Shown: piece by piece, positions 8,070 to 33,541 of the stretch
Numbering within the stretch: the stretch's first letter is position 1
Layout of the letters: each line of letters starts with the position of its first letter
Assembly (NCBI RefSeq): GCF_003790525.1
Contig: NZ_CP033635.1
From: Escherichia coli
Lineage (GTDB): Bacteria; Pseudomonadota; Gammaproteobacteria; Enterobacterales; Enterobacteriaceae
Length of the DNA stretch: 64,000 nt
Direction: 5' to 3' (one strand)
Program-made: the position numbers and the translations under genes
The notes under the pieces: model-generated
Told to the model about the DNA's origin: nothing
The model's input: only the letters and a program-made list of their open reading frames with translations
The model's database searches: none

Positions 8070-10211
8070 TCAAAATTCCATTTTCACCGTGAATTGCACT
8101 TCACGAGGATCGCCAATCTGGTTGCCCAGATTATTTGTGGCGATGGAAGAGGTGTAATACGTTTTATCAAACAGGTTTTTGACGTTTAATTGCAGTGTGA
8201 CCGGATACTGCAATTTCATTTTGTATGCGGCGAAGGCATCGGCAACGAAATAGCCTGGCAGATAATAGTCAGCCCCATTGGTTGCCGAACGACGGCTTAC
8301 GCCATGTCCACCACCGCCAAACGTCAGTGTGTTATTGCCAGGCATGTTATGAATGTCATAAGTCAGGAATAGCGAACCGGTATGACGAGGAACATTCGGC
8401 AATGGTTTCCCTGCATAATCAGGATCCTCCAGAACCTTAGCATCGGTATAGCCGTAGCTGGCAATGATATTAATGTTTTCAGTTAATGCTCCCGCAAGGT
8501 CGACTTCTACCCCTCTTGAACGAACACGGCCTGCCGTTTTGGCAATGGTTTCATCACCAACACTTTCGGTATACAACACATTACGTTTATGGATATCAAA
8601 CAGCGCAATATCTGCGGTGATACCATCGAATAGCTCGAATTTTGCCCCGACTTCGTAAGCATTAGATGATTCCGGTGGAAGATCGCCAATGTAGCTGGCA
8701 ATTGACGACTGCGGCATAAATGTTTGCGAATAATTGGCAAATAAGGATACCGATGGCGTCAGTTTGTAGACTAACCCCAGTTTGGGAGTCCATTGTTCAT
8801 CGCGGCTGTCAGTATTGACATTAAAAGGACGGCCTTTACCCGCATACTGCGTGTAATACTGATAGCGGATCCCGGCGACGGCAATCCAGTTATCGGTCAG
8901 ATAGAGTGCGTCCTGTGCATACGCTGAGTAGCTCTCCTGTTTGATCGTCTGATCACTGTCCGACGCCGAAACCGTTGTACATTTGCTGGTATTACCATAA
9001 ACAGGGTTGTAGATATTGAAATCTTTAGCTTTTTTACAGCGAATCATATCTGTACGCAGAAGATCATAATATTCATATGACACCCCACCCAGAATCTCAT
9101 TATAGAATCCGGCAATATCAACATTCCCTTGCAGATCCGCACGAGTAGCATGCATACGCTGGGTAGATCCCTGAGTTGCATCAACACGCCGTGTCAGTGT
9201 TCCTGTCGTTGCATCATACGCGGTAACACGCGCCTGATTATCGCTGTATTTATCCTGGCTGTAGCTGTAATCAAAGCGCGCTGTCCACTGGCTATTGAGA
9301 TGATATTCTGCGTTGAGTTGCGCCAGATCGGACTTTCCATCTGTAATATTAAACGGTTCGTCAAAACGTATTTTTCGATCAACGTTTACGGGCTGTTTCG
9401 TCGTAAGGTCGAAAATCGTTCCACGATCGAACGGAGTTTTATAGTCCCGATGGGAATAGAGCATAGTTACTGTTGCATTATCACCAAACCAGGTGAGTGA
9501 CGGGGCAATAAATGTACTGCGCTCTTTACCGAAGTTTCGCCAGTAATCTTCATCCTGCACTTCCCCGGTAAGGCGATACGCCAGCTGAGTGCCTTCAATG
9601 GGACCTGTGATATCAAGTTGCCCAGTGCCGCCACCAAAACTGGAGGAGGTGGCTGAAACCGAACCATGGAATGTTTTTTCCGGGCGCTTGGTCACGACGT
9701 TAATCAGTCCACCAGGATCGAGAATGCCATACAGCGTGGAGGCCGGACCTTTTAGCACTTCCACACGTTCTGTGGCGGCGTTGAAACTGCGAGGAAGTAC
9801 AGTTCGCAGGCCGTTGGTCATGATGGAGCCATCCCGGTTAGCACCAAACCCACGACGTACAAAGGCGTCCTGAGTTCCGCCTAATGTATTGGTCTGTACC
9901 ACGTTACTGACGTTATAAAGCGCTTCATCCAGCGTCGTCGCATTCTGATTTTCCAGAACCTGATCGCTAACAGTATTGACCACCTGCGGGATATCCAGCA
10001 TCGGCATATCGGTTAATGTCGCCGTGGAAGTGCTCAGAGGTTGATAACCATCGGTTGCCTCAGTTGCGGTATTTGCATCTGCTGTAACAGTGATTGTTTC
10101 GCCATCTTTGGTCGTTACAGAGTCTGTTGCATGAATCATCGGTGCCGCAAAAAGCAGTGAAAAGAGCGCCCGACCTTTGAGTCCTGAGAATGAAGGTGTG
10201 AACATAGCCAT
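8070..10211 (-). CDS. TonB-dependent siderophore receptor (Fit-like outer membrane receptor)
   Basis: 713 aa ORF; signal peptide, TonB-box-like ETITVTA near N-terminus, C-terminal ...TVKMEF with terminal Phe typical of beta-barrel OMPs; organisation resembles the E. coli Fit system as I recall it. Confidence 0.85.
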   Translation of the reverse strand: MAMFTPSFSGLKGRALFSLLFAAPMIHATDSVTTKDGETITVTADANTATEATDGYQPLSTSTATLTDMPMLDIPQVVNTVSDQVLENQNATTLDEALYNVSNVVQTNTLGGTQDAFVRRGFGANRDGSIMTNGLRTVLPRSFNAATERVEVLKGPASTLYGILDPGGLINVVTKRPEKTFHGSVSATSSSFGGGTGQLDITGPIEGTQLAYRLTGEVQDEDYWRNFGKERSTFIAPSLTWFGDNATVTMLYSHRDYKTPFDRGTIFDLTTKQPVNVDRKIRFDEPFNITDGKSDLAQLNAEYHLNSQWTARFDYSYSQDKYSDNQARVTAYDATTGTLTRRVDATQGSTQRMHATRADLQGNVDIAGFYNEILGGVSYEYYDLLRTDMIRCKKAKDFNIYNPVYGNTSKCTTVSASDSDQTIKQESYSAYAQDALYLTDNWIAVAGIRYQYYTQYAGKGRPFNVNTDSRDEQWTPKLGLVYKLTPSVSLFANYSQTFMPQSSIASYIGDLPPESSNAYEVGAKFELFDGITADIALFDIHKRNVLYTESVGDETIAKTAGRVRSRGVEVDLAGALTENINIIASYGYTDAKVLEDPDYAGKPLPNVPRHTGSLFLTYDIHNMPGNNTLTFGGGGHGVSRRSATNGADYYLPGYFVADAFAAYKMKLQYPVTLQLNVKNLFDKTYYTSSIATNNLGNQIGDPREVQFTVKMEF

Positions 10212-10308
10212 TTAGTCTGTTATCCCAAAAACTCGCGGATTGTCGCGAGTGAAAATTGTTTCTTATTGCTCACTAAGCACTATCCGTTTGTTATTTCGCC
10301 ATCGGATA

Positions 10309-10330
10309 TGTAATTGAGAATCATTCAATC
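10309..10330. promoter_or_regulatory. candidate Fur box in divergent receptor/ABC operon control region
   Basis: TAATTGAGAATCATTCAATC resembles Fur consensus GATAATGATAATCATTATC; a second AATGAGAAAT-like element lies about 25 bp downstream; sits in an AT-rich 373 bp intergenic. Confidence 0.45.
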
Positions 10331-10584
10331 ACGCAGTAATGTAGTAGTAAATGAGAAATAACAAAAAATTGCTACATGTGTTTTTATGAAAAGTTTATAC
10401 AATTTGATTGCTTTTAATTTATTGATATTTAATGGTTTTGTTTTTATGTGCAAAAATATTTTACCTGTTATTTACCTTGTTTTTGTGTGGCTTTTAACTG
10501 CTTGACTACTACATTTTGTGGCGTCAAACTCTCAAAGGAGAATGAGTTTTATTTTTGTTTGTCTTTGATTAAGTTGGCGTACAC

Positions 10585-11394
10585 GTGGCACATAACGCAA
10601 AAGGGCAGGGGCTGATCCTCGACAATGTTTCTGCCGGGTATCACAAGAAAATCATTGTTGATGGTGTTTCTTTCTCCGTTCCCACAGAAAAAATGACCGT
10701 TCTGGTTGGGGCAAACGGCTGTGGAAAGTCGACGCTGCTCAGCACCATTGCTCGTATCTTGCAACCCATGGGCGGTTCGATATTGCTGGATGGTAAAGCG
10801 ATTCACGAGCAACCAACGAAAGCGTTATCCCGTAGACTTGGGATCTTGCCGCAGTCGCCATTATTGCCGGAGGGCTTAACCGTTTATGAACTGGTGTCGC
10901 GTGGGCGTTTTCCCTGGCAGAATTTCATTCGTCAATGGAGCGACGCCGATGAGCTGGCGGTAGAAGAGGCCCTGAAATTAACGGGTACGCAGGAGTTTGC
11001 ACATTTACCTGTTGAAAAACTCTCTGGTGGGCAGCGCCAGCGTTGCTGGATTGCGATGGTGTTGGCGCAAAAGACGCCTTATATCCTGCTGGATGAACCC
11101 ACAACCTGGCTTGATTTACGTTATCAGGTTGAAATTCTTGAGTTATTACATGATTTAACGCGTCATCACGGGCGTACAGTCGTCGTGGTGTTGCATGATC
11201 TGAATTTTGCCGTCAATTATGGCGATACGTTGATATTTTTACGCCAGGGGAAAGTGGTGCGTGTGTTGAATGAGGGGGAGCATTGCACGCCTGAGCTGGT
11301 AAAAGCGGTCTTTGACGTTGATGTTCACGCATCAATAAATCCTCTGACGGGAAAGCCGTTCTTCATGCCGTTTCGTGGTGTAGAAAAAGTATGA
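10585..11394 (+). CDS. iron-siderophore ABC transporter ATP-binding protein
   Basis: 269 aa from GTG at 10585 (exact start uncertain); Walker A GANGCGKST, ABC signature LSGGQRQR, Walker B ILLDEPTTWLD. Confidence 0.85.
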   Translation: MAHNAKGQGLILDNVSAGYHKKIIVDGVSFSVPTEKMTVLVGANGCGKSTLLSTIARILQPMGGSILLDGKAIHEQPTKALSRRLGILPQSPLLPEGLTVYELVSRGRFPWQNFIRQWSDADELAVEEALKLTGTQEFAHLPVEKLSGGQRQRCWIAMVLAQKTPYILLDEPTTWLDLRYQVEILELLHDLTRHHGRTVVVVLHDLNFAVNYGDTLIFLRQGKVVRVLNEGEHCTPELVKAVFDVDVHASINPLTGKPFFMPFRGVEKV

Positions 11395-12374
11395 TGCGCA
11401 CAGGGCTGGTTACTGTAATTTTCCTCGCCTTACTGCTGGTGGGATGCGTGGTATATCCAGGGATTGGTGCCCGATTTATTGCACCACAAACGGTGTTGCA
11501 GGCATTTCTTCATTTTGATCCGCAAAACTTCGATCACAACGTAATTGTAAGACTCCGTTTGCCGCGTTTAGCGGCAGCATTGCTTACCGGTGCTTCTCTT
11601 GGAGTTGCTGGTGCTTTGTTGCAGGCTGTCATTCGTAACCCATTGGGGGAGCCACATATTTTAGGCTTAAATGCCGGAGCCGCTCTTGCTGTCGTTGCTG
11701 CCAGTGCGCTTGGGCTGGCCTTTCCGGTTGGACGCCCACTGCTGGCATCTACGGGCGGCGCGTTATTGTTCCTGTTGATATTGCTGCTTTCCTCCGCAGG
11801 GCGTTCAGGGTTAACGCCAATGAAAGTTACTTTATGCGGCGTGGCGCTATCGGCGTTCGTGTCCTCAATAACGGCTGCAATCCTGATTCTTGACGAACAA
11901 ACACTGCTGGCGATGCGGACATGGCTAGCAGGTGATTTAGCGGGGCAGGATTGGGCGACGCTGGGTACGTCCGCCTGGTTTTCTCTGGGGGGATTTGTGT
12001 TAGCCCTTTACCTTGCACCCTCCCTTAACATGTTGGCACTGGGCGATCGCATGGCGCAGGGGCTGGGCGTCTCTGTATTCCGCACGCGAACATTCACCCT
12101 GCTTGCGATCGCGTTGCTCTGTGGCGCAGCCGTATCGATTGCTGGCCCCATTGGTTTTGTCGGCCTGCTAGTACCGCAGATTGTCCGGCGTCTGGTATCA
12201 GCGGATCTGCGCGTTCTGCTCCCTCTTTCAGCTTGTGTCGGCGCACTTTTGTTATTACTGGCAGATATTATTGCCCGTACGCTTTTCACACCCCATGAGT
12301 TAGCGACCGGTGTCATGACGGCGTTAGTTGGTGCGCCTGTTTTTGTCATTATGGCGACGAGGATGTTCAAATGA
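11391..12374 (+). CDS. iron-siderophore ABC transporter permease (FecCD family)
   Basis: 327 aa polytopic hydrophobic ORF; 4 nt start/stop overlap with upstream ATPase gene. Confidence 0.85.
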   Translation: MMRTGLVTVIFLALLLVGCVVYPGIGARFIAPQTVLQAFLHFDPQNFDHNVIVRLRLPRLAAALLTGASLGVAGALLQAVIRNPLGEPHILGLNAGAALAVVAASALGLAFPVGRPLLASTGGALLFLLILLLSSAGRSGLTPMKVTLCGVALSAFVSSITAAILILDEQTLLAMRTWLAGDLAGQDWATLGTSAWFSLGGFVLALYLAPSLNMLALGDRMAQGLGVSVFRTRTFTLLAIALLCGAAVSIAGPIGFVGLLVPQIVRRLVSADLRVLLPLSACVGALLLLLADIIARTLFTPHELATGVMTALVGAPVFVIMATRMFK

Positions 12375-13420
12375 GTCGGATAATGAACGTCGGGCTACGC
12401 CCACTACGTGTTGGTAAGTTTTCGACACTGGTACGCCCTAAAAATCTGCTGTTGCTTGGTGGGCTGTTCCTGCTTGCGGTTGGAATACTGATATTCGGTC
12501 TGATGCAGGGTTCTTTCTCTGTTCCGGCATCGGAAGTAGGACGAGCGTTGTTTGCTCCAGAAAACGTAAGCACAGACGCACGTTATATTGTGCAGGATAT
12601 TCGCTTGCCGAGAGTCATCATGGCATTGCTATGCGGGGCCATGTTAGGTATGGCAGGGGCCGCAATGCAATCCATTGCACGTAACGGCCTTGCCGATCCT
12701 GGTTTAATCGGCGTCAAAGAAGGATGTAGCGTGGCTGTGCTGTGGCTGATTTTCCAGTTTCCAATGCTGGGAATGTTCTGGCGTCCAGTGGCTGGTCTTG
12801 CTGGTGGCCTGTTGGTGGCTTTAATCGTGATTTTTTGTGCGCGCGATATTTCCCGCCCGCGATTTGTTCTGATTGGTATTGGTGTTTCCTGGTTTTTCGC
12901 CGCCGGTATCGGTGTATTTATGACCACTGCAGATGTTCGAGATGTACAAACTGCATTGATGTGGTTATCGGGAAGCCTGCATGCAGCTAACTGGATGTTA
13001 GTCGCTATTTCAGCCTGTTGGATGTTGCCAGCCGCTCTTTTATTGCTGTTCACCGCCAGGACGGCGGATATCGCTCTGCTTGGTCATCAGGTTGCAACCG
13101 GGTTAGGGGTGAATAGTTCTCGTCTGGCGTTGTTACGTGTCGCTGCACCCATAATCCTGACAGCCGTCTGCGTTTCGTGTGTTGGTAACATCGGTTTTGT
13201 CGGATTGATAGCACCCCATATATCACGTTTTATTCTACGTGGCGGGCAGACGACATTACTGCTGGGGAGCGCGGTATCGGGGGCGTTGTTAGTTATTCTG
13301 GCGGATAGCATTGGTCGTTTGGCTTTTTTGCCTTTGCAACTGCCTGCCGGAATCATTATCTCACTGATTGGTGGACCATTTTTTTTGCTACTGCTCTGGC
13401 AGCGCAGGAACAGTTTTTAA
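12371..13420 (+). CDS. iron-siderophore ABC transporter permease (FecCD family), second subunit
   Basis: 349 aa hydrophobic ORF paralogous to the preceding permease; 4 nt overlap with it. Confidence 0.85.
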   Translation: MSRIMNVGLRPLRVGKFSTLVRPKNLLLLGGLFLLAVGILIFGLMQGSFSVPASEVGRALFAPENVSTDARYIVQDIRLPRVIMALLCGAMLGMAGAAMQSIARNGLADPGLIGVKEGCSVAVLWLIFQFPMLGMFWRPVAGLAGGLLVALIVIFCARDISRPRFVLIGIGVSWFFAAGIGVFMTTADVRDVQTALMWLSGSLHAANWMLVAISACWMLPAALLLLFTARTADIALLGHQVATGLGVNSSRLALLRVAAPIILTAVCVSCVGNIGFVGLIAPHISRFILRGGQTTLLLGSAVSGALLVILADSIGRLAFLPLQLPAGIIISLIGGPFFLLLLWQRRNSF

Positions 13421-13430
13421 CGGGAGTTAT

Positions 13431-14378
13431 ATGCGTTTATTTTTTTCTCTGCTGATACTGTTGTCATTTTTTTCCCGTGCAACAGAACCTGTTCAGGTAT
13501 TTACTGATGATTTAGGGCGCAAAGTCACTGTTCCTGCTCATCCAAAGAGAATTGTCTCTTTACACGATCTTGATATCACTATTCCTCTGATTGAGCTCGG
13601 TGTACCTCCTGTCGCCAGCCACGGGCGAACTCGGCCTGACGGTAGCCATTTCATTCGATCTGGCGCGTTATTGACAGGTGTCGACTTTGATAATTCATCG
13701 ATCGCCTTTATTGGTACCGCTGATATTGATATTGAAGCGATTGTGGCGGCAAAGCCTGACCTGATCATCACAGAACCGACCCGTAATACGCCCATTGAAC
13801 AACTTGAAAAAATTGCGCCCACGGTGAGCATTGATCATCTCAAAGGGGGCGCGCCAGAAATCTATCGCAAGCTGGCAGAACTTACAGGAACGCAGTCGCA
13901 GCTGGCGATACTTGAACGCCGCTATCAGGCACAAATCAATGCGCTGAAGGCGACGCTGGACAGCCAAAAAATAACGGTATCGGTGATTCAGGCAAACCAG
14001 GGAAAAATTAATGTGATGCATAGCTATCATTCGCTGGGGCGGGTATTACGCGATGCTGGTTTTCGTTTTCCGCCGCTGATTGAGAGCATTCCTGAAGGTG
14101 GGCGAATGGATGTGAGCGCGGAGCGTTTACCTGAACTGGATGCCGATTTTGTTTTTGCAACCTGGCGCGGTGACACCGGTGGTAAACCTCAGGATGAGCT
14201 GGCAGCAATGGAAAAAGTCATGCCGGGATGGTGTCAGTTTCTGACTGCCTGTCGTTCCGGGCGTTATGTGCTGATTTCTCGTGAAGAGGCGATTTCTAAC
14301 TCCTTTGCATCTCTGGGGCTGATGGCTGCGCAGATACAATCACAAATTGCAGGGCGACCTCTACCGGAGGATAAATGA
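13431..14378 (+). CDS. periplasmic siderophore-binding protein (ABC substrate-binding, class III)
   Basis: ORF 13368-14378 trimmed to ATG at 13431 preceded by GGGAG; signal peptide MRLFFSLLILLSFFSRA. Confidence 0.8.
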   Translation: MRLFFSLLILLSFFSRATEPVQVFTDDLGRKVTVPAHPKRIVSLHDLDITIPLIELGVPPVASHGRTRPDGSHFIRSGALLTGVDFDNSSIAFIGTADIDIEAIVAAKPDLIITEPTRNTPIEQLEKIAPTVSIDHLKGGAPEIYRKLAELTGTQSQLAILERRYQAQINALKATLDSQKITVSVIQANQGKINVMHSYHSLGRVLRDAGFRFPPLIESIPEGGRMDVSAERLPELDADFVFATWRGDTGGKPQDELAAMEKVMPGWCQFLTACRSGRYVLISREEAISNSFASLGLMAAQIQSQIAGRPLPEDK

Positions 14379-15262
14379 TCCAGAAAGATAAAGCGCGGGT
14401 TGATATTTTTGGTGAGCGTTTTCGCACTCGCGCGAGTCAGTTAACGCCTGGGTTAAGAGTTGTCGCCAGCTACATTAATGAGCATCGTGAAGTGGTACTC
14501 GAGCAAACGGCGATGGAAATTGCGGCCACGTTGAACACTTCCGATGCCACAGTTATCAGGGCTATACAGGCCCTGGGGTTTGCCGGGCTGCGTGATCTGA
14601 AACGCACTCTGGAACAGTGGCTTGGTCCAGCCCTTAGTTCCAGCGAAAAGATGTCTACGACGGTGAGTAACTTGACGAGCGATGTTAACACCGCAATCGA
14701 CTTTGTTCTTGAAGGGCATTTGTATACCTGTAATGTCCTGTCAGAGCCTGAAAACCGCCACGCGCTTGCGCAAGCTGTAGCGTTGTTGGTGCAGGCACGG
14801 CAAGTCGCTATTTTTGGCATTGGCGCTTCGGGTATCCTGGCGGACTATACCGCACGACTATTCAACCGCATAGGTTTGCCTGCCACGGCACTAAACCGTA
14901 CGGGTATTGGCCTTGCCGAGCAACTGATCGCGCTTCAACGTGGCGATGTTCTGATCATGATGGCGCAAAAATCTGCGCACCGGGAAGGGCTGACAACGCT
15001 TCGTGAGGCGAGGCGGCTGGGGATCCCTGTTATTTTGCTGACAAACGCGCTGGATTCACGTTTTAGCAAAGACGCCAGTATCGTGATTCATGTTCCGCGC
15101 GGGGATGAAAAAGGGAAAACGCCGCTACATGGTACGGTATTGTTGTGTCTGGAAATGATTGTCTGGTCGGTAGCTTCCGCAGTGCCGCAGCGTGCGGTTA
15201 AAACCATTAAGCGAATTAACGATTTCCATCGAGGACTGAAAACGGGAAGAAAGAATGGCTAA
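14375..15262 (+). CDS. RpiR/MurR family transcriptional regulator (HTH plus SIS domain)
   Basis: 295 aa; N-terminal HTH region and C-terminal SIS-like sugar-phosphate binding region (IFGIGASG...); 4 nt overlap with binding-protein gene. Confidence 0.8.
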   Translation: MIQKDKARVDIFGERFRTRASQLTPGLRVVASYINEHREVVLEQTAMEIAATLNTSDATVIRAIQALGFAGLRDLKRTLEQWLGPALSSSEKMSTTVSNLTSDVNTAIDFVLEGHLYTCNVLSEPENRHALAQAVALLVQARQVAIFGIGASGILADYTARLFNRIGLPATALNRTGIGLAEQLIALQRGDVLIMMAQKSAHREGLTTLREARRLGIPVILLTNALDSRFSKDASIVIHVPRGDEKGKTPLHGTVLLCLEMIVWSVASAVPQRAVKTIKRINDFHRGLKTGRKNG

Positions 15263-16233: not shown

Positions 16234-16342
16234 TTTTTAACCTTAAGGTGAGACGTTTGCCGACTATAGTACGTCACAGAGCGGTACGGTGAAATTAGCA
16301 AAATGTGCAAAGTCTTTTGCGAATTTAGCAAAAGTCTTACCC

Positions 16343-18944: not shown

Positions 18945-19427
18945 ATGACAAACCTGACACTGGATGTAAATATTATCGATTTCCCATCAATCCCTGTGGC
19001 GATGTTGCCGCACCGCTGTAGCCCTGAGTTGCTCAACTACAGTGTGGCGAAATTTATCATGTGGCGTAAAGAGACGGGGCTTTCTCCTGTTAACCAAAGC
19101 CAGACTTTTGGCGTCGCCTGGGACGACCCTGCCACCACCGCACCAGAAGCGTTTCGCTTTGATATCTGCGGCAGCGTTAGCGAACCGATCCCCGATAATC
19201 GTTATGGCGTAAGTAATGGTGAACTTACCGGTGGACGTTATGCTGTGGCCCGCCATGTTGGCGAGCTGGACGATATTTCACACACGATATGGGGCATCAT
19301 TCGCCACTGGCTTCCGGCAAGCGGCGAAAAAATGCGCAAGGCCCCGATCCTGTTTCACTACACCAATCTTGCCGAAGGGATGACAGAGCAGCGACTGGAA
19401 ACAGATGTTTATGTGCCGTTGGCGTGA
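18945..19427 (+). CDS. ygiV: GyrI-like effector-binding domain protein YgiV
   Basis: 160 aa ORF recognised as YgiV. Confidence 0.88.
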   Translation: MTNLTLDVNIIDFPSIPVAMLPHRCSPELLNYSVAKFIMWRKETGLSPVNQSQTFGVAWDDPATTAPEAFRFDICGSVSEPIPDNRYGVSNGELTGGRYAVARHVGELDDISHTIWGIIRHWLPASGEKMRKAPILFHYTNLAEGMTEQRLETDVYVPLA

Positions 19428-19535
19428 TGAAGAATCTTTACCGGAGTGTGAGCCAAATCACTCGCGATAAGTTTGAGCGAACAATGCCACAGGCGTATTG
19501 TTGTTGGGCTTATAATTTCTCCGGTAAGGAATACC

Positions 19536-21143
19536 ATGTATACGCGAAATTTATTATGGCTGGTCAGCCTGGTAAGTGCGGCTCCTCTCTACGCTGCTGA
19601 CGTTCCCGCCAACACACCGCTCGCCCCGCAACAAGTCTTTCGTTACAACAATCATAGCGACCCAGGCACGCTCGACCCGCAAAAGGTGGAGGAGAATACT
19701 GCCGCGCAGATTGTGCTGGATCTGTTTGAAGGTCTGGTATGGATGGACGGTGAAGGCCAGGTGCAGCCCGCTCAGGCTGAACGCTGGGAGATACTGGACG
19801 GCGGCAAGCGCTATATTTTCCATCTGCGTAGCGGTTTGCAGTGGTCAGACGGTCAGCCTCTGACGGCAGAGGATTTTGTCCTCGGCTGGCAGCGCGCGGT
19901 TGACCCGAAAACGGCAAGCCCTTTTGCTGGCTATCTGGCACAGGCGCACATTAACAATGCCGCGGCTATTGTTGCGGGTAAAGCAGATGTTACATCGCTG
20001 GGTGTCAAAGCGACGGATGATCGTACTCTTGAAGTTACGCTTGAGCAGCCAGTTCCTTGGTTCACGACGATGCTCGCCTGGCCGACGCTGTTCCCGGTTC
20101 CTCATCATGTCATCGCTAAACATGGCGATAGCTGGAGTAAGCCAGAGAACATGGTTTACAACGGTGCCTTTGTGCTTGATCAGTGGGTAGTTAACGAAAA
20201 GATTACTGCACGCAAAAATCCAAAGTACCGCGATGCGCAACATACAGTATTGCAACAGGTTGAGTATCTGGCGCTGGATAATTCGGTCACCGGCTATAAC
20301 CGCTATCGCGCGGGAGAGGTCGATCTCACCTGGGTTCCGGCGCAGCAAATTCCCGCCATTGAAAAATCACTGCCTGGCGAGCTACGAATTATTCCGCGTC
20401 TGAACAGCGAATATTACAACTTCAACCTTGAGAAACCGCCATTTAACGATGTGCGGGTGCGTCGGGCGCTATATCTTACGGTTGATCGACAGCTTATTGC
20501 GCAAAAGGTACTGGGGTTGAGAACGCCCGCAACTACGCTGACGCCGCCAGAGGTAAAAGGCTTTAGCGCGACGACGTTCGATGAACTGCAAAAGCCGCTG
20601 AGTGAGCGCGTCGCGATGGCAAAAGCCTTGTTGAAACAGGCGGGATACGACGCCTCTCATCCGCTTCGCTTTGAGCTGTTCTACAACAAGTACGATCTGC
20701 ATGAAAAGACCGCGATAGCGTTGTCTTCCGAATGGAAAAAATGGCTGGGTGCACAGGTGACGCTGCGCACAATGGAGTGGAAAACTTATCTTGATGCCCG
20801 ACGAGCCGGTGATTTCATGTTGTCTCGGCAGTCGTGGGATGCGACGTACAATGATGCCTCCACCTTTCTGAACACGCTTAAGAGCGATAGCGAGGAAAAT
20901 GTCGGCCACTGGAAAAACGCGCAGTATGACGCCTTACTAAACCAGGCGGCACAAACGGCTGATGCAACAAAGCGTAATGCGTTGTATCAGCAGGCAGAAG
21001 TGATCATCAACCAGCAGGCACCGCTCATTCCTGTCTATTATCAGCCGTTAATCAAACTGCTTAAACCCTACGTTGGCGGTTTTCCGCTGCATAATCCCCA
21101 GGATTATGTCTACAGCAAAGAGTTGTATATCAAGGCACATTGA
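19536..21143 (+). CDS. ygiS: periplasmic oligopeptide-binding protein (ABC substrate-binding family 5) YgiS
   Basis: ORF 19473-21143 trimmed to ATG at 19536 preceded by AAGGA; 535 aa with signal peptide MYTRNLLWLVSLVSAAPLYAA. Confidence 0.9.
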   Translation: MYTRNLLWLVSLVSAAPLYAADVPANTPLAPQQVFRYNNHSDPGTLDPQKVEENTAAQIVLDLFEGLVWMDGEGQVQPAQAERWEILDGGKRYIFHLRSGLQWSDGQPLTAEDFVLGWQRAVDPKTASPFAGYLAQAHINNAAAIVAGKADVTSLGVKATDDRTLEVTLEQPVPWFTTMLAWPTLFPVPHHVIAKHGDSWSKPENMVYNGAFVLDQWVVNEKITARKNPKYRDAQHTVLQQVEYLALDNSVTGYNRYRAGEVDLTWVPAQQIPAIEKSLPGELRIIPRLNSEYYNFNLEKPPFNDVRVRRALYLTVDRQLIAQKVLGLRTPATTLTPPEVKGFSATTFDELQKPLSERVAMAKALLKQAGYDASHPLRFELFYNKYDLHEKTAIALSSEWKKWLGAQVTLRTMEWKTYLDARRAGDFMLSRQSWDATYNDASTFLNTLKSDSEENVGHWKNAQYDALLNQAAQTADATKRNALYQQAEVIINQQAPLIPVYYQPLIKLLKPYVGGFPLHNPQDYVYSKELYIKAH

Positions 21144-32469: not shown

Positions 32470-32791
32470 TATGCTCTTACTCCTGGTGGCTTGTGTGTAT
32501 ACCAATTTACATAATTCACTAGACCAAAAACAGAGAGATGCATCACGCTTGCAGAGAAAGGTAAAAGTACGAAACAGAACAACAAGGCGTTATTTATATC
32601 TGTATCAATGAGTTATATGAATAAAATGAAAGGAAAGTTTTTTAGAGGTCAGTTTTTGGGATAATTGCCGCTAATCTAAGATATCTGATGATAGTCGATT
32701 TATTAGACCAATTGAAAAGAGAGCGTGTACCAGTGGAGGGCGGAAGGCAGAGCCGGCGTTATTTTTCCCGCCAGCTCTGGACTAATGAAGG

Positions 32792-33541
32792 TTAACGAGC
32801 GAAGAAAAAGTCATCAAAATCGCTGATGGAAGCGTCTTGTTTGAAGATTTTGATCAGTTCATTTTTGCTGTTTTCCAGATGTCTCCAGGATGCTTCCCTG
32901 GCGAGCTCTGAATCTTTCTGTTGTAGCGCAAGGAAAATAGCCCGGTGATCTTCCAGCCATTGCAGACGCAAATGCTTTTCATGCAGGTACTTGTAGTTAA
33001 GTTTCTTCCAGCGGGGGTTTTCTGTACGAACTGCCCGCCATAATTCAGCAGCTTGTTTGATGAGTACCCGATTTTGCGTCGCTTCGGCAATAATGCTATG
33101 AAATCGGTGATCCAGGTCTTCAAATTTATCACTTTCCGCAGCGATAGCGTTTTCCTGCAATCTAATGATTTTCTTTAACTCTTGTAACTCGTTAAAGCTA
33201 ATCTGGCTGGCTGCAAAACCAGTAATATTGCTCTCAATCACCTGACGCGCCTGCAACAGTTCAAACGGGCCAATTTCTGAATAGGGCATTAATGATTTCT
33301 GGTTGAGCTTATCGGTGGAGTCGACAAAGAAAATCCCTGACCCTTGCTTCACATTCAATACGCCTTTCAGTTCCAGCATAATGATGGCTTCACGAATGGT
33401 AGTTCGGCTGGTATTAAACCGCTCGCTCAGTTCACGTTCTGAAGGTAAGCGTTCTCCGGCCTTAAATACGCCTGAATACAGCAGCTCTTCAATCTGTAGA
33501 CCAATATCGTAATAGCGGCGCTTTGTAATAACCTGTTCCAT
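32792..33541 (-). CDS. GntR family transcriptional regulator (FadR/FCD subfamily)
   Basis: 249 aa; N-terminal winged HTH (LPSERELSERFNTSRTTIREAIIMLELKGVL) plus C-terminal FCD-like helical domain. Confidence 0.85.
   Translation of the reverse strand: MEQVITKRRYYDIGLQIEELLYSGVFKAGERLPSERELSERFNTSRTTIREAIIMLELKGVLNVKQGSGIFFVDSTDKLNQKSLMPYSEIGPFELLQARQVIESNITGFAASQISFNELQELKKIIRLQENAIAAESDKFEDLDHRFHSIIAEATQNRVLIKQAAELWRAVRTENPRWKKLNYKYLHEKHLRLQWLEDHRAIFLALQQKDSELAREASWRHLENSKNELIKIFKQDASISDFDDFFFAR

Follow-up and report, generated by a model that had tools for sequence, protein, structure and literature searches.

The Escherichia coli strain examined here has no MqsR/MqsA toxin-antitoxin (TA) pair, and the gap between ygiV and ygiS, the address of this pair in K-12, is very probably the original, never-occupied form of the site, an ordinary one among E. 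coli. The stretch that we analyzed (the window, 64,000 nucleotides in full) belongs to the E. coli chromosome. Over the 1,091 bp tested, it matches strain CFSAN061771 (NZ_CP042896.1), whose source is raw milk cheese (Egypt), at 100% identity. The gene order at the site is mdaB, qseC, and qseB on the minus strand, followed by ygiW, ygiV, ygiS, parC, and plsC on the plus strand, and the RefSeq annotation of CFSAN061771 gives the same genes, with the same ends, as the open reading frame (ORF) coordinates of the window. An earlier note on this DNA had placed the end of ygiV at 19427 and the start of ygiS at 19536, with 108 bp between them. These coordinates are correct by the sequence, the ORF list, and the CFSAN061771 annotation in RefSeq: ygiV stops with TGA at 19425-19427, and the ygiS ATG stands at 19536. 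The features of the site are the following.

18945 to 19427, plus strand: ygiV, GyrI-like/AraC-family regulator, left flank (ORF; Pfam GyrI-like, E 5e-36; RefSeq)
19428 to 19535, plus strand: ygiV-ygiS spacer, the unoccupied mqsRA site, 108 bp (aligned to K-12, other E. coli lineages, and other Escherichia)
19430 to 19434, plus strand: AAGAA, standing where K-12 has a 927-bp cassette (GGGAA in other empty-site E. coli)
19435 to 19535, plus strand: conserved right part of the spacer, 101 bp (100% identical in the window, K-12, O103:H2, 042, and O145:H28)
19484 to 19496, plus strand: weak terminator-like hairpin with a T-rich tail, possibly the ygiV terminator (scan: 1 found versus 0.4 expected)
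19536 to 21143, plus strand: ygiS, family-5 periplasmic solute-binding protein, right flank, intact (ORF; Pfam SBP_bac_5, E 3e-84; RefSeq)

Neither gene of the pair is present in the window. When K-12 MqsR, a ribonuclease of about 98 aa, was compared by tblastn with the whole 64-kb window, the best match covered 7 aa (E 1.5). MqsA, the antitoxin of about 131 aa with a zinc-binding N-terminal domain and a helix-turn-helix, gave only scattered short matches, the best with an E value of 0.56. The DNA of the K-12 cassette, compared with the whole window by blastn at a word size of 7, likewise produced matches at chance level only, so that no cassette fragment is left. The claim that the spacer holds no remnant of mqsRA is thus borne out, the only nucleotides that stand in place of the 927 bp of K-12 being the pentamer AAGAA. 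Paired MqsA operator palindromes (ACCT-N2-4-AGGT) are missing from 19428-19535, and palindromes of this type occur at chance level in the window as a whole (2 versus 1.3 expected, at 13487 and 16240). The second of these, ACCTTAAGGT at 16240-16249, is perfect and overlaps the ribosome-binding region of mdaB; given the chance-level count, it is probably meaningless. The further claim that the spacer contains no ORF needs to be qualified, in that three mechanical ORFs overlap it: 19289-19600 on the plus strand, 19409-19537 on the minus strand, and an upstream TTG extension of ygiS. The first two are out of frame, run into ygiV or ygiS, and have no Pfam match.

We aligned the junction with that of K-12 and with those of mqsRA-negative E. 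coli, as the earlier note had suggested. The K-12 order that it had given (ygiV, mqsR, mqsA, ygiS) matches MG1655, in which ygiS is b3020, mqsA is b3021, mqsR is b3022, and ygiV is b3023. After GTGATG, which comprises the ygiV stop codon and 2 further nucleotides, K-12 has 927 bp and the window has AAGAA, and both then continue with TCTTTACCGGAG into ygiS. The K-12 mqsRA locus (ygiU-ygiT, b3022-b3021) and the window therefore share the same ygiV/ygiS address, colinear flanks, and the identical 101 bp upstream of ygiS, and they differ in that the window lacks the entire cassette and has 5 bp instead. With the flanks intact and colinear with those of occupied genomes, and the difference confined to one indel, a single exchange of 5 bp for 927 bp, the description of the gap as a clean empty site is apt. 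The cassette consists of the mqsRA promoter, which bears two palindromic MqsA operators (ACCT-TTT-AGGT), mqsR, mqsA, and a terminator-like hairpin. Its GC content is 41%; ygiV and ygiS have 52-53%, and the window as a whole 51%. Our alignment agrees with a previous table (PMC5120126), which lists K-12 spacings of 204 bp between ygiV and mqsR and 132 bp between mqsA and ygiS, a terminator following mqsA, and a putative promoter for ygiS.

The empty sites of other E. coli are colinear with that of the window. The junction of ATCC 11775, ST131, O157:H7, and O103:H2 reads TGATGGGGAATCTTTACC, and that of the window reads TGATGAAGAATCTTTACC; the window thus carries a lineage-specific variant, with two G>A substitutions at 19430-19431 (GG>AA) relative to GGGAA. 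To look beyond E. coli, we scanned species-representative genomes with YgiV, which recovered five other Escherichia but neither E. fergusonii nor Salmonella. The five are E. albertii, E. whittamii, Escherichia sp. E1V33, Escherichia sp. MOD1-EC7003, and a divergent genome labelled E. coli SCPM-O-B-8794. None of the five representatives has MqsR or MqsA beside ygiV. In all five, ygiV is followed by ygiS or by ygiS remnants, and the spacer is 108-110 bp in the three with an intact ygiS. Their junction, TGAnGGGGA(A)TCTTTACC, is colinear with those of the empty-site E. coli and of the window. ATCC 11775, ST131, O157:H7, E. albertii, E. whittamii, and the other Escherichia therefore resemble the window in spacer length, in architecture, and in the lack of TA genes, and the other E. 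coli differ from it only in having GGGAA where the window has AAGAA.

These junctions bear directly on whether the window could descend from a K-12-like ancestor by precise deletion of the cassette, with the pentamer as a scar. The K-12 arrangement (…GTGATG/CCTGAC…GCTTTTT/TCTTTACC…) can yield neither AAGAA nor GGGAA, and the window retains no fragment of the cassette. A pentamer reading GGGAA or GGGGA occurs in the five Escherichia species and in other E. coli, takes the form AAGAA in the window, and is absent from K-12. Because it is common to the outgroups and to empty E. coli but missing from K-12, the empty site cannot be a K-12 deletion scar. Beyond the absence of the cassette itself, nothing speaks for such a deletion, which the junction sequences effectively refute and which we regard as very improbable. 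Since the short spacer, free of mqsRA, recurs in five other Escherichia, the ancestral state, judged from these species, is the empty site, and K-12 has the derived form.

The empty site is also the majority state. Among 5,426 complete E. coli genomes, we counted the following states.

927-bp cassette present: 2,299 genomes (42%)
Contiguous empty junction with ygiS intact: 1,754 genomes
Empty junction with only the first 22 nt of ygiS left: about 1,370 genomes

Overall, the site is empty in about 3,125 genomes (58%), in keeping with the proposal that mqsRA is a strain-variable accessory module. The 2,299 cassette copies are all at least 99% identical to that of K-12 and all chromosomal, with none on plasmids, and every copy inspected lies between ygiV and ygiS. 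A 308-bp junction query matched 7,722 places in 5,424 genomes; the excess of 2,298 corresponds to the number of cassette carriers, which indicates that carriage of the cassette and the empty site are mutually exclusive. We also searched the E. coli genomes in distant mode with a chimeric query, in which the K-12 cassette was combined with ygiV-ygiS of the window. This query matched 5,430 places in 5,425 genomes. With only 5 surplus places for a query that contains the cassette, there is no second locus, and essentially no genome has cassette-like DNA elsewhere. The search for mqsRA at other sites that the earlier note had proposed is therefore negative at the population level, on these aggregate counts. 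The same numbers speak against an artefact of the assembly or of the window, by which mqsRA would be present in the strain but collapsed out or relocated. The contiguous junction recurs in the 1,754 complete genomes with ygiS and in about 1,370 more without it, relocated copies were not seen in the population-level search, and nothing argues in favor of such an artefact, which we consider scarcely credible.

Two further observations concern the genes at the site. The first is that ygiS is unstable: roughly one in four E. coli genomes lacks it from the position equivalent to 19558 of the window onward, and in genomes of this kind, such as O103:H2, parC begins about 545 bp after ygiV. Two other Escherichia species have only fragments of ygiS, and the breakpoints differ, so that the gene decayed independently. 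The affected loci are L002 6484-7028, L003 4553-4922, and L005 3713-4140. The second is that mqsR is split by IS1 or by the IS5-like ISKpn26 in several cassette-positive strains (H31 and H127-H138), where it is annotated in two pieces. The toxin gene would be inactivated in these strains and mqsA would be intact.

The most probable history of the site, as a whole, is one in which the window preserves an ancestral ygiV-ygiS intergenic region that was never occupied, its lineage never having received the cassette; we hold this explanation with high confidence. A single horizontal transfer would have brought a self-contained, AT-rich cassette of 927 bp into a subset of E. coli, K-12 included, with the loss of 5 bp (GGGAA) immediately behind the stop codon of ygiV. 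The cassette would then have spread by descent and probably also by homologous recombination through the flanking genes. A single horizontal acquisition is suggested by the low GC content, by the one insertion point, and by the near identity of the cassette across its 2,299 carriers, compared with 95-98% identity to K-12 for the flanking genes of the window. The strain of the window would accordingly be one without the MqsR ribonuclease and the MqsA repressor; its ygiS follows ygiV immediately and has a conserved leader of its own.

As to how the cassette may have arrived, its ends in K-12 read CCTGACTCC… and …CTCGCTTTTT, and the alignment of K-12 with the window reveals neither a target-site duplication nor a terminal repeat there, the 5 bp of the target having been replaced. 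The only genes in the cassette are mqsR and mqsA, with none for a recombinase or integrase. Insertion by a transposon, an insertion sequence, or an integrase thus finds no support, target-site duplications, terminal inverted repeats, and a recombinase gene all being lacking in the K-12 cassette. This lack counts against the proposed acquisition, as does the fact that no donor of high DNA identity emerged. MqsR-family toxins with 60-68% amino acid identity are found on plasmids, some of them conjugative, of Rahnella, Rouxiella, Pectobacterium, Yersinia, and many other Proteobacteria, so that a mobile reservoir of related toxins exists. A comparison of MqsR with phage genomes gave no match. We also considered and discarded plasmid-borne mqsRA within E. 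coli: the two E. coli "plasmid" records in PLSDB that contain mqsR (NZ_MG591698.1 and NZ_CP141089.1) are misfiled chromosomal sequence, one of them carrying parC, qseBC, and ygiS and the other being 4.9 Mb long.

An alternative to a never-occupied site is secondary loss, in which an ancestor of the strain carried mqsRA and the empty allele was restored across ygiV-ygiS by homologous recombination with mqsRA-free DNA. Recombination in this region seems to take place, to judge from a comparison of strain 042 with K-12, in which the mqsRA-ygiS-parC tract is 99.8-99.9% identical and the neighboring ygiV, qseC, and plsC are more divergent, at 98.3-98.8%. This single comparison hints that the cassette may move between lineages by recombination in its flanks, with which the 042 tract would fit. 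Carriage also looks patchy among serotypes, O145:H28 having the cassette and O157:H7 lacking it. However, nothing in the window requires a replacement of this kind, and the empty state is the state both of the majority and of the outgroups. In addition, ygiV of the window, at 95.7% identity to that of K-12, is unlike that of every lineage compared, and the AAGAA variant is specific to this lineage, so that no recently imported tract is seen. We accordingly judge secondary loss to be quite unlikely, and we retain the never-occupied site as the explanation of the window.

The 101 bp upstream of ygiS show more conservation than their surroundings, with 94-96% identity in species in which ygiV and ygiS reach only 87-89%. 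An inverted repeat spans this part of the spacer, with TCTTTACCGGAG at 19435-19446 and CTCCGGTAAGGA at 19519-19530, and a TATAAT hexamer, read directly from the sequence, lies between the arms at 19511-19516. The spacer RNA is predicted to fold at -38 kcal/mol (z score of -3.8; none of 200 shuffled sequences folds as well) into a long hairpin closed by a 12-bp stem, in which TCTTTACCGGAG is paired with CTCCGGTAAGGA. The right arm covers the Shine-Dalgarno sequence of ygiS (AAGGA, 19526-19530), and the insertion point of the cassette is exactly the 5' foot of the predicted stem. Covariation across seven Escherichia sequences yielded no compensatory pairs and a few broken ones, so that the hairpin is unsupported beyond thermodynamics. 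A consensus scan of 19300-19700 found no full match to a sigma-70 promoter, and the ygiS promoter therefore remains putative. An Rfam scan of 19200-19800 returned nothing meaningful, the best match being the sR18 snoRNA at 16.5 bits (gathering score of 45; E 0.32). It is conceivable, if unlikely, that the hairpin would silence translation of ygiS on transcripts reading through from ygiV (from mqsA in K-12), that transcripts from the gene's own promoter, which would lack the left arm, would be translated, and that the cassette went in at the 5' foot of this element without disrupting it. If so, the hairpin would provide translational insulation of ygiS from read-through transcripts.

Other differences between the window and K-12 were also observed. 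The gene ygiZ, encoding a DUF2645 membrane protein, is absent from the mdaB-qseC spacer (16234-16342), where K-12 has about 587 extra AT-rich bp. The ygiZ segment occurs in 4,601 of the 5,426 E. coli genomes; among the outgroups, it is present in E. whittamii and was not detected in E. albertii or in the three other Escherichia loci. In strain 042, a gene for an Hcp-family type VI secretion system (T6SS) effector and a hypothetical gene adjoin ygiZ. The genes parE and ygiN are neighbors in K-12; in the window they are separated by a 7-kb iron-uptake island (8070-15262), which encodes a TonB-dependent siderophore receptor, an ABC ATPase, two FecCD permeases, a substrate-binding protein, and a MurR/RpiR regulator. 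This island, which may resemble the fit ferrichrome-type locus, is found in 1,870 of the 5,426 genomes, including O157:H7. Finally, a block at 26068-33541 that is missing from K-12 lies between ftsP and ygiQ, themselves adjacent in K-12. It comprises a TRAP transporter, three dehydrogenase/oxidoreductase genes, and a gene for a GntR-family regulator; the TRAP small-permease gene has an internal stop and is annotated as a pseudogene.

The site has the features of the strain-variable chromosomal type II TA modules of E. coli, which Fiedoruk et al. (2015, Microbiology 161:158) and Ramisetty and Santhosh (2016, FEMS Microbiol Lett 363:fnv238), both cited in PMC7167474, are said to have described. 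It shares with them a small AT-rich cassette that is present or absent between conserved core genes, with the flanks intact where it is missing. We see no difference of substance, and the site in the window is one more instance. Indeed, the accessory nature of mqsRA and its dependence on phylogroup are already on record, and what the window holds is an ordinary form of a well-known variable locus. The literature describes the TA systems of K-12 as accessory, with an uneven distribution (PMC7167474), and a study of strain NRG857c detected no homologue of MqsRA (PMC7232551). Both the frequencies and the polarity from outgroups that are reported here come from counts made in the present analysis. 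Work on MqsR and MqsA in K-12 has concerned biofilm formation, persistence, bile-salt tolerance through ygiS, and the control of GhoT. The results of that work are not transferable to the strain of the window, nor to the complete E. coli genomes without the module, roughly 58% of the total. Reports in K-12 that tied MqsR to cleavage of ygiS mRNA and to deoxycholate tolerance were later disputed, in part because deletion of mqsRA may be polar on the adjacent ygiS (PMC6918082). The practical value of the finding is modest, and the empty site offers a convenient natural control for the effect of mqsRA on ygiS expression. Its polarity, with the empty site as the ancestral and majority state, judged from the Escherichia compared, and K-12 as the exception, fits a view of chromosomal TA modules as horizontally acquired accessory DNA and not as core regulators (PMC7167474, PMC6918082).
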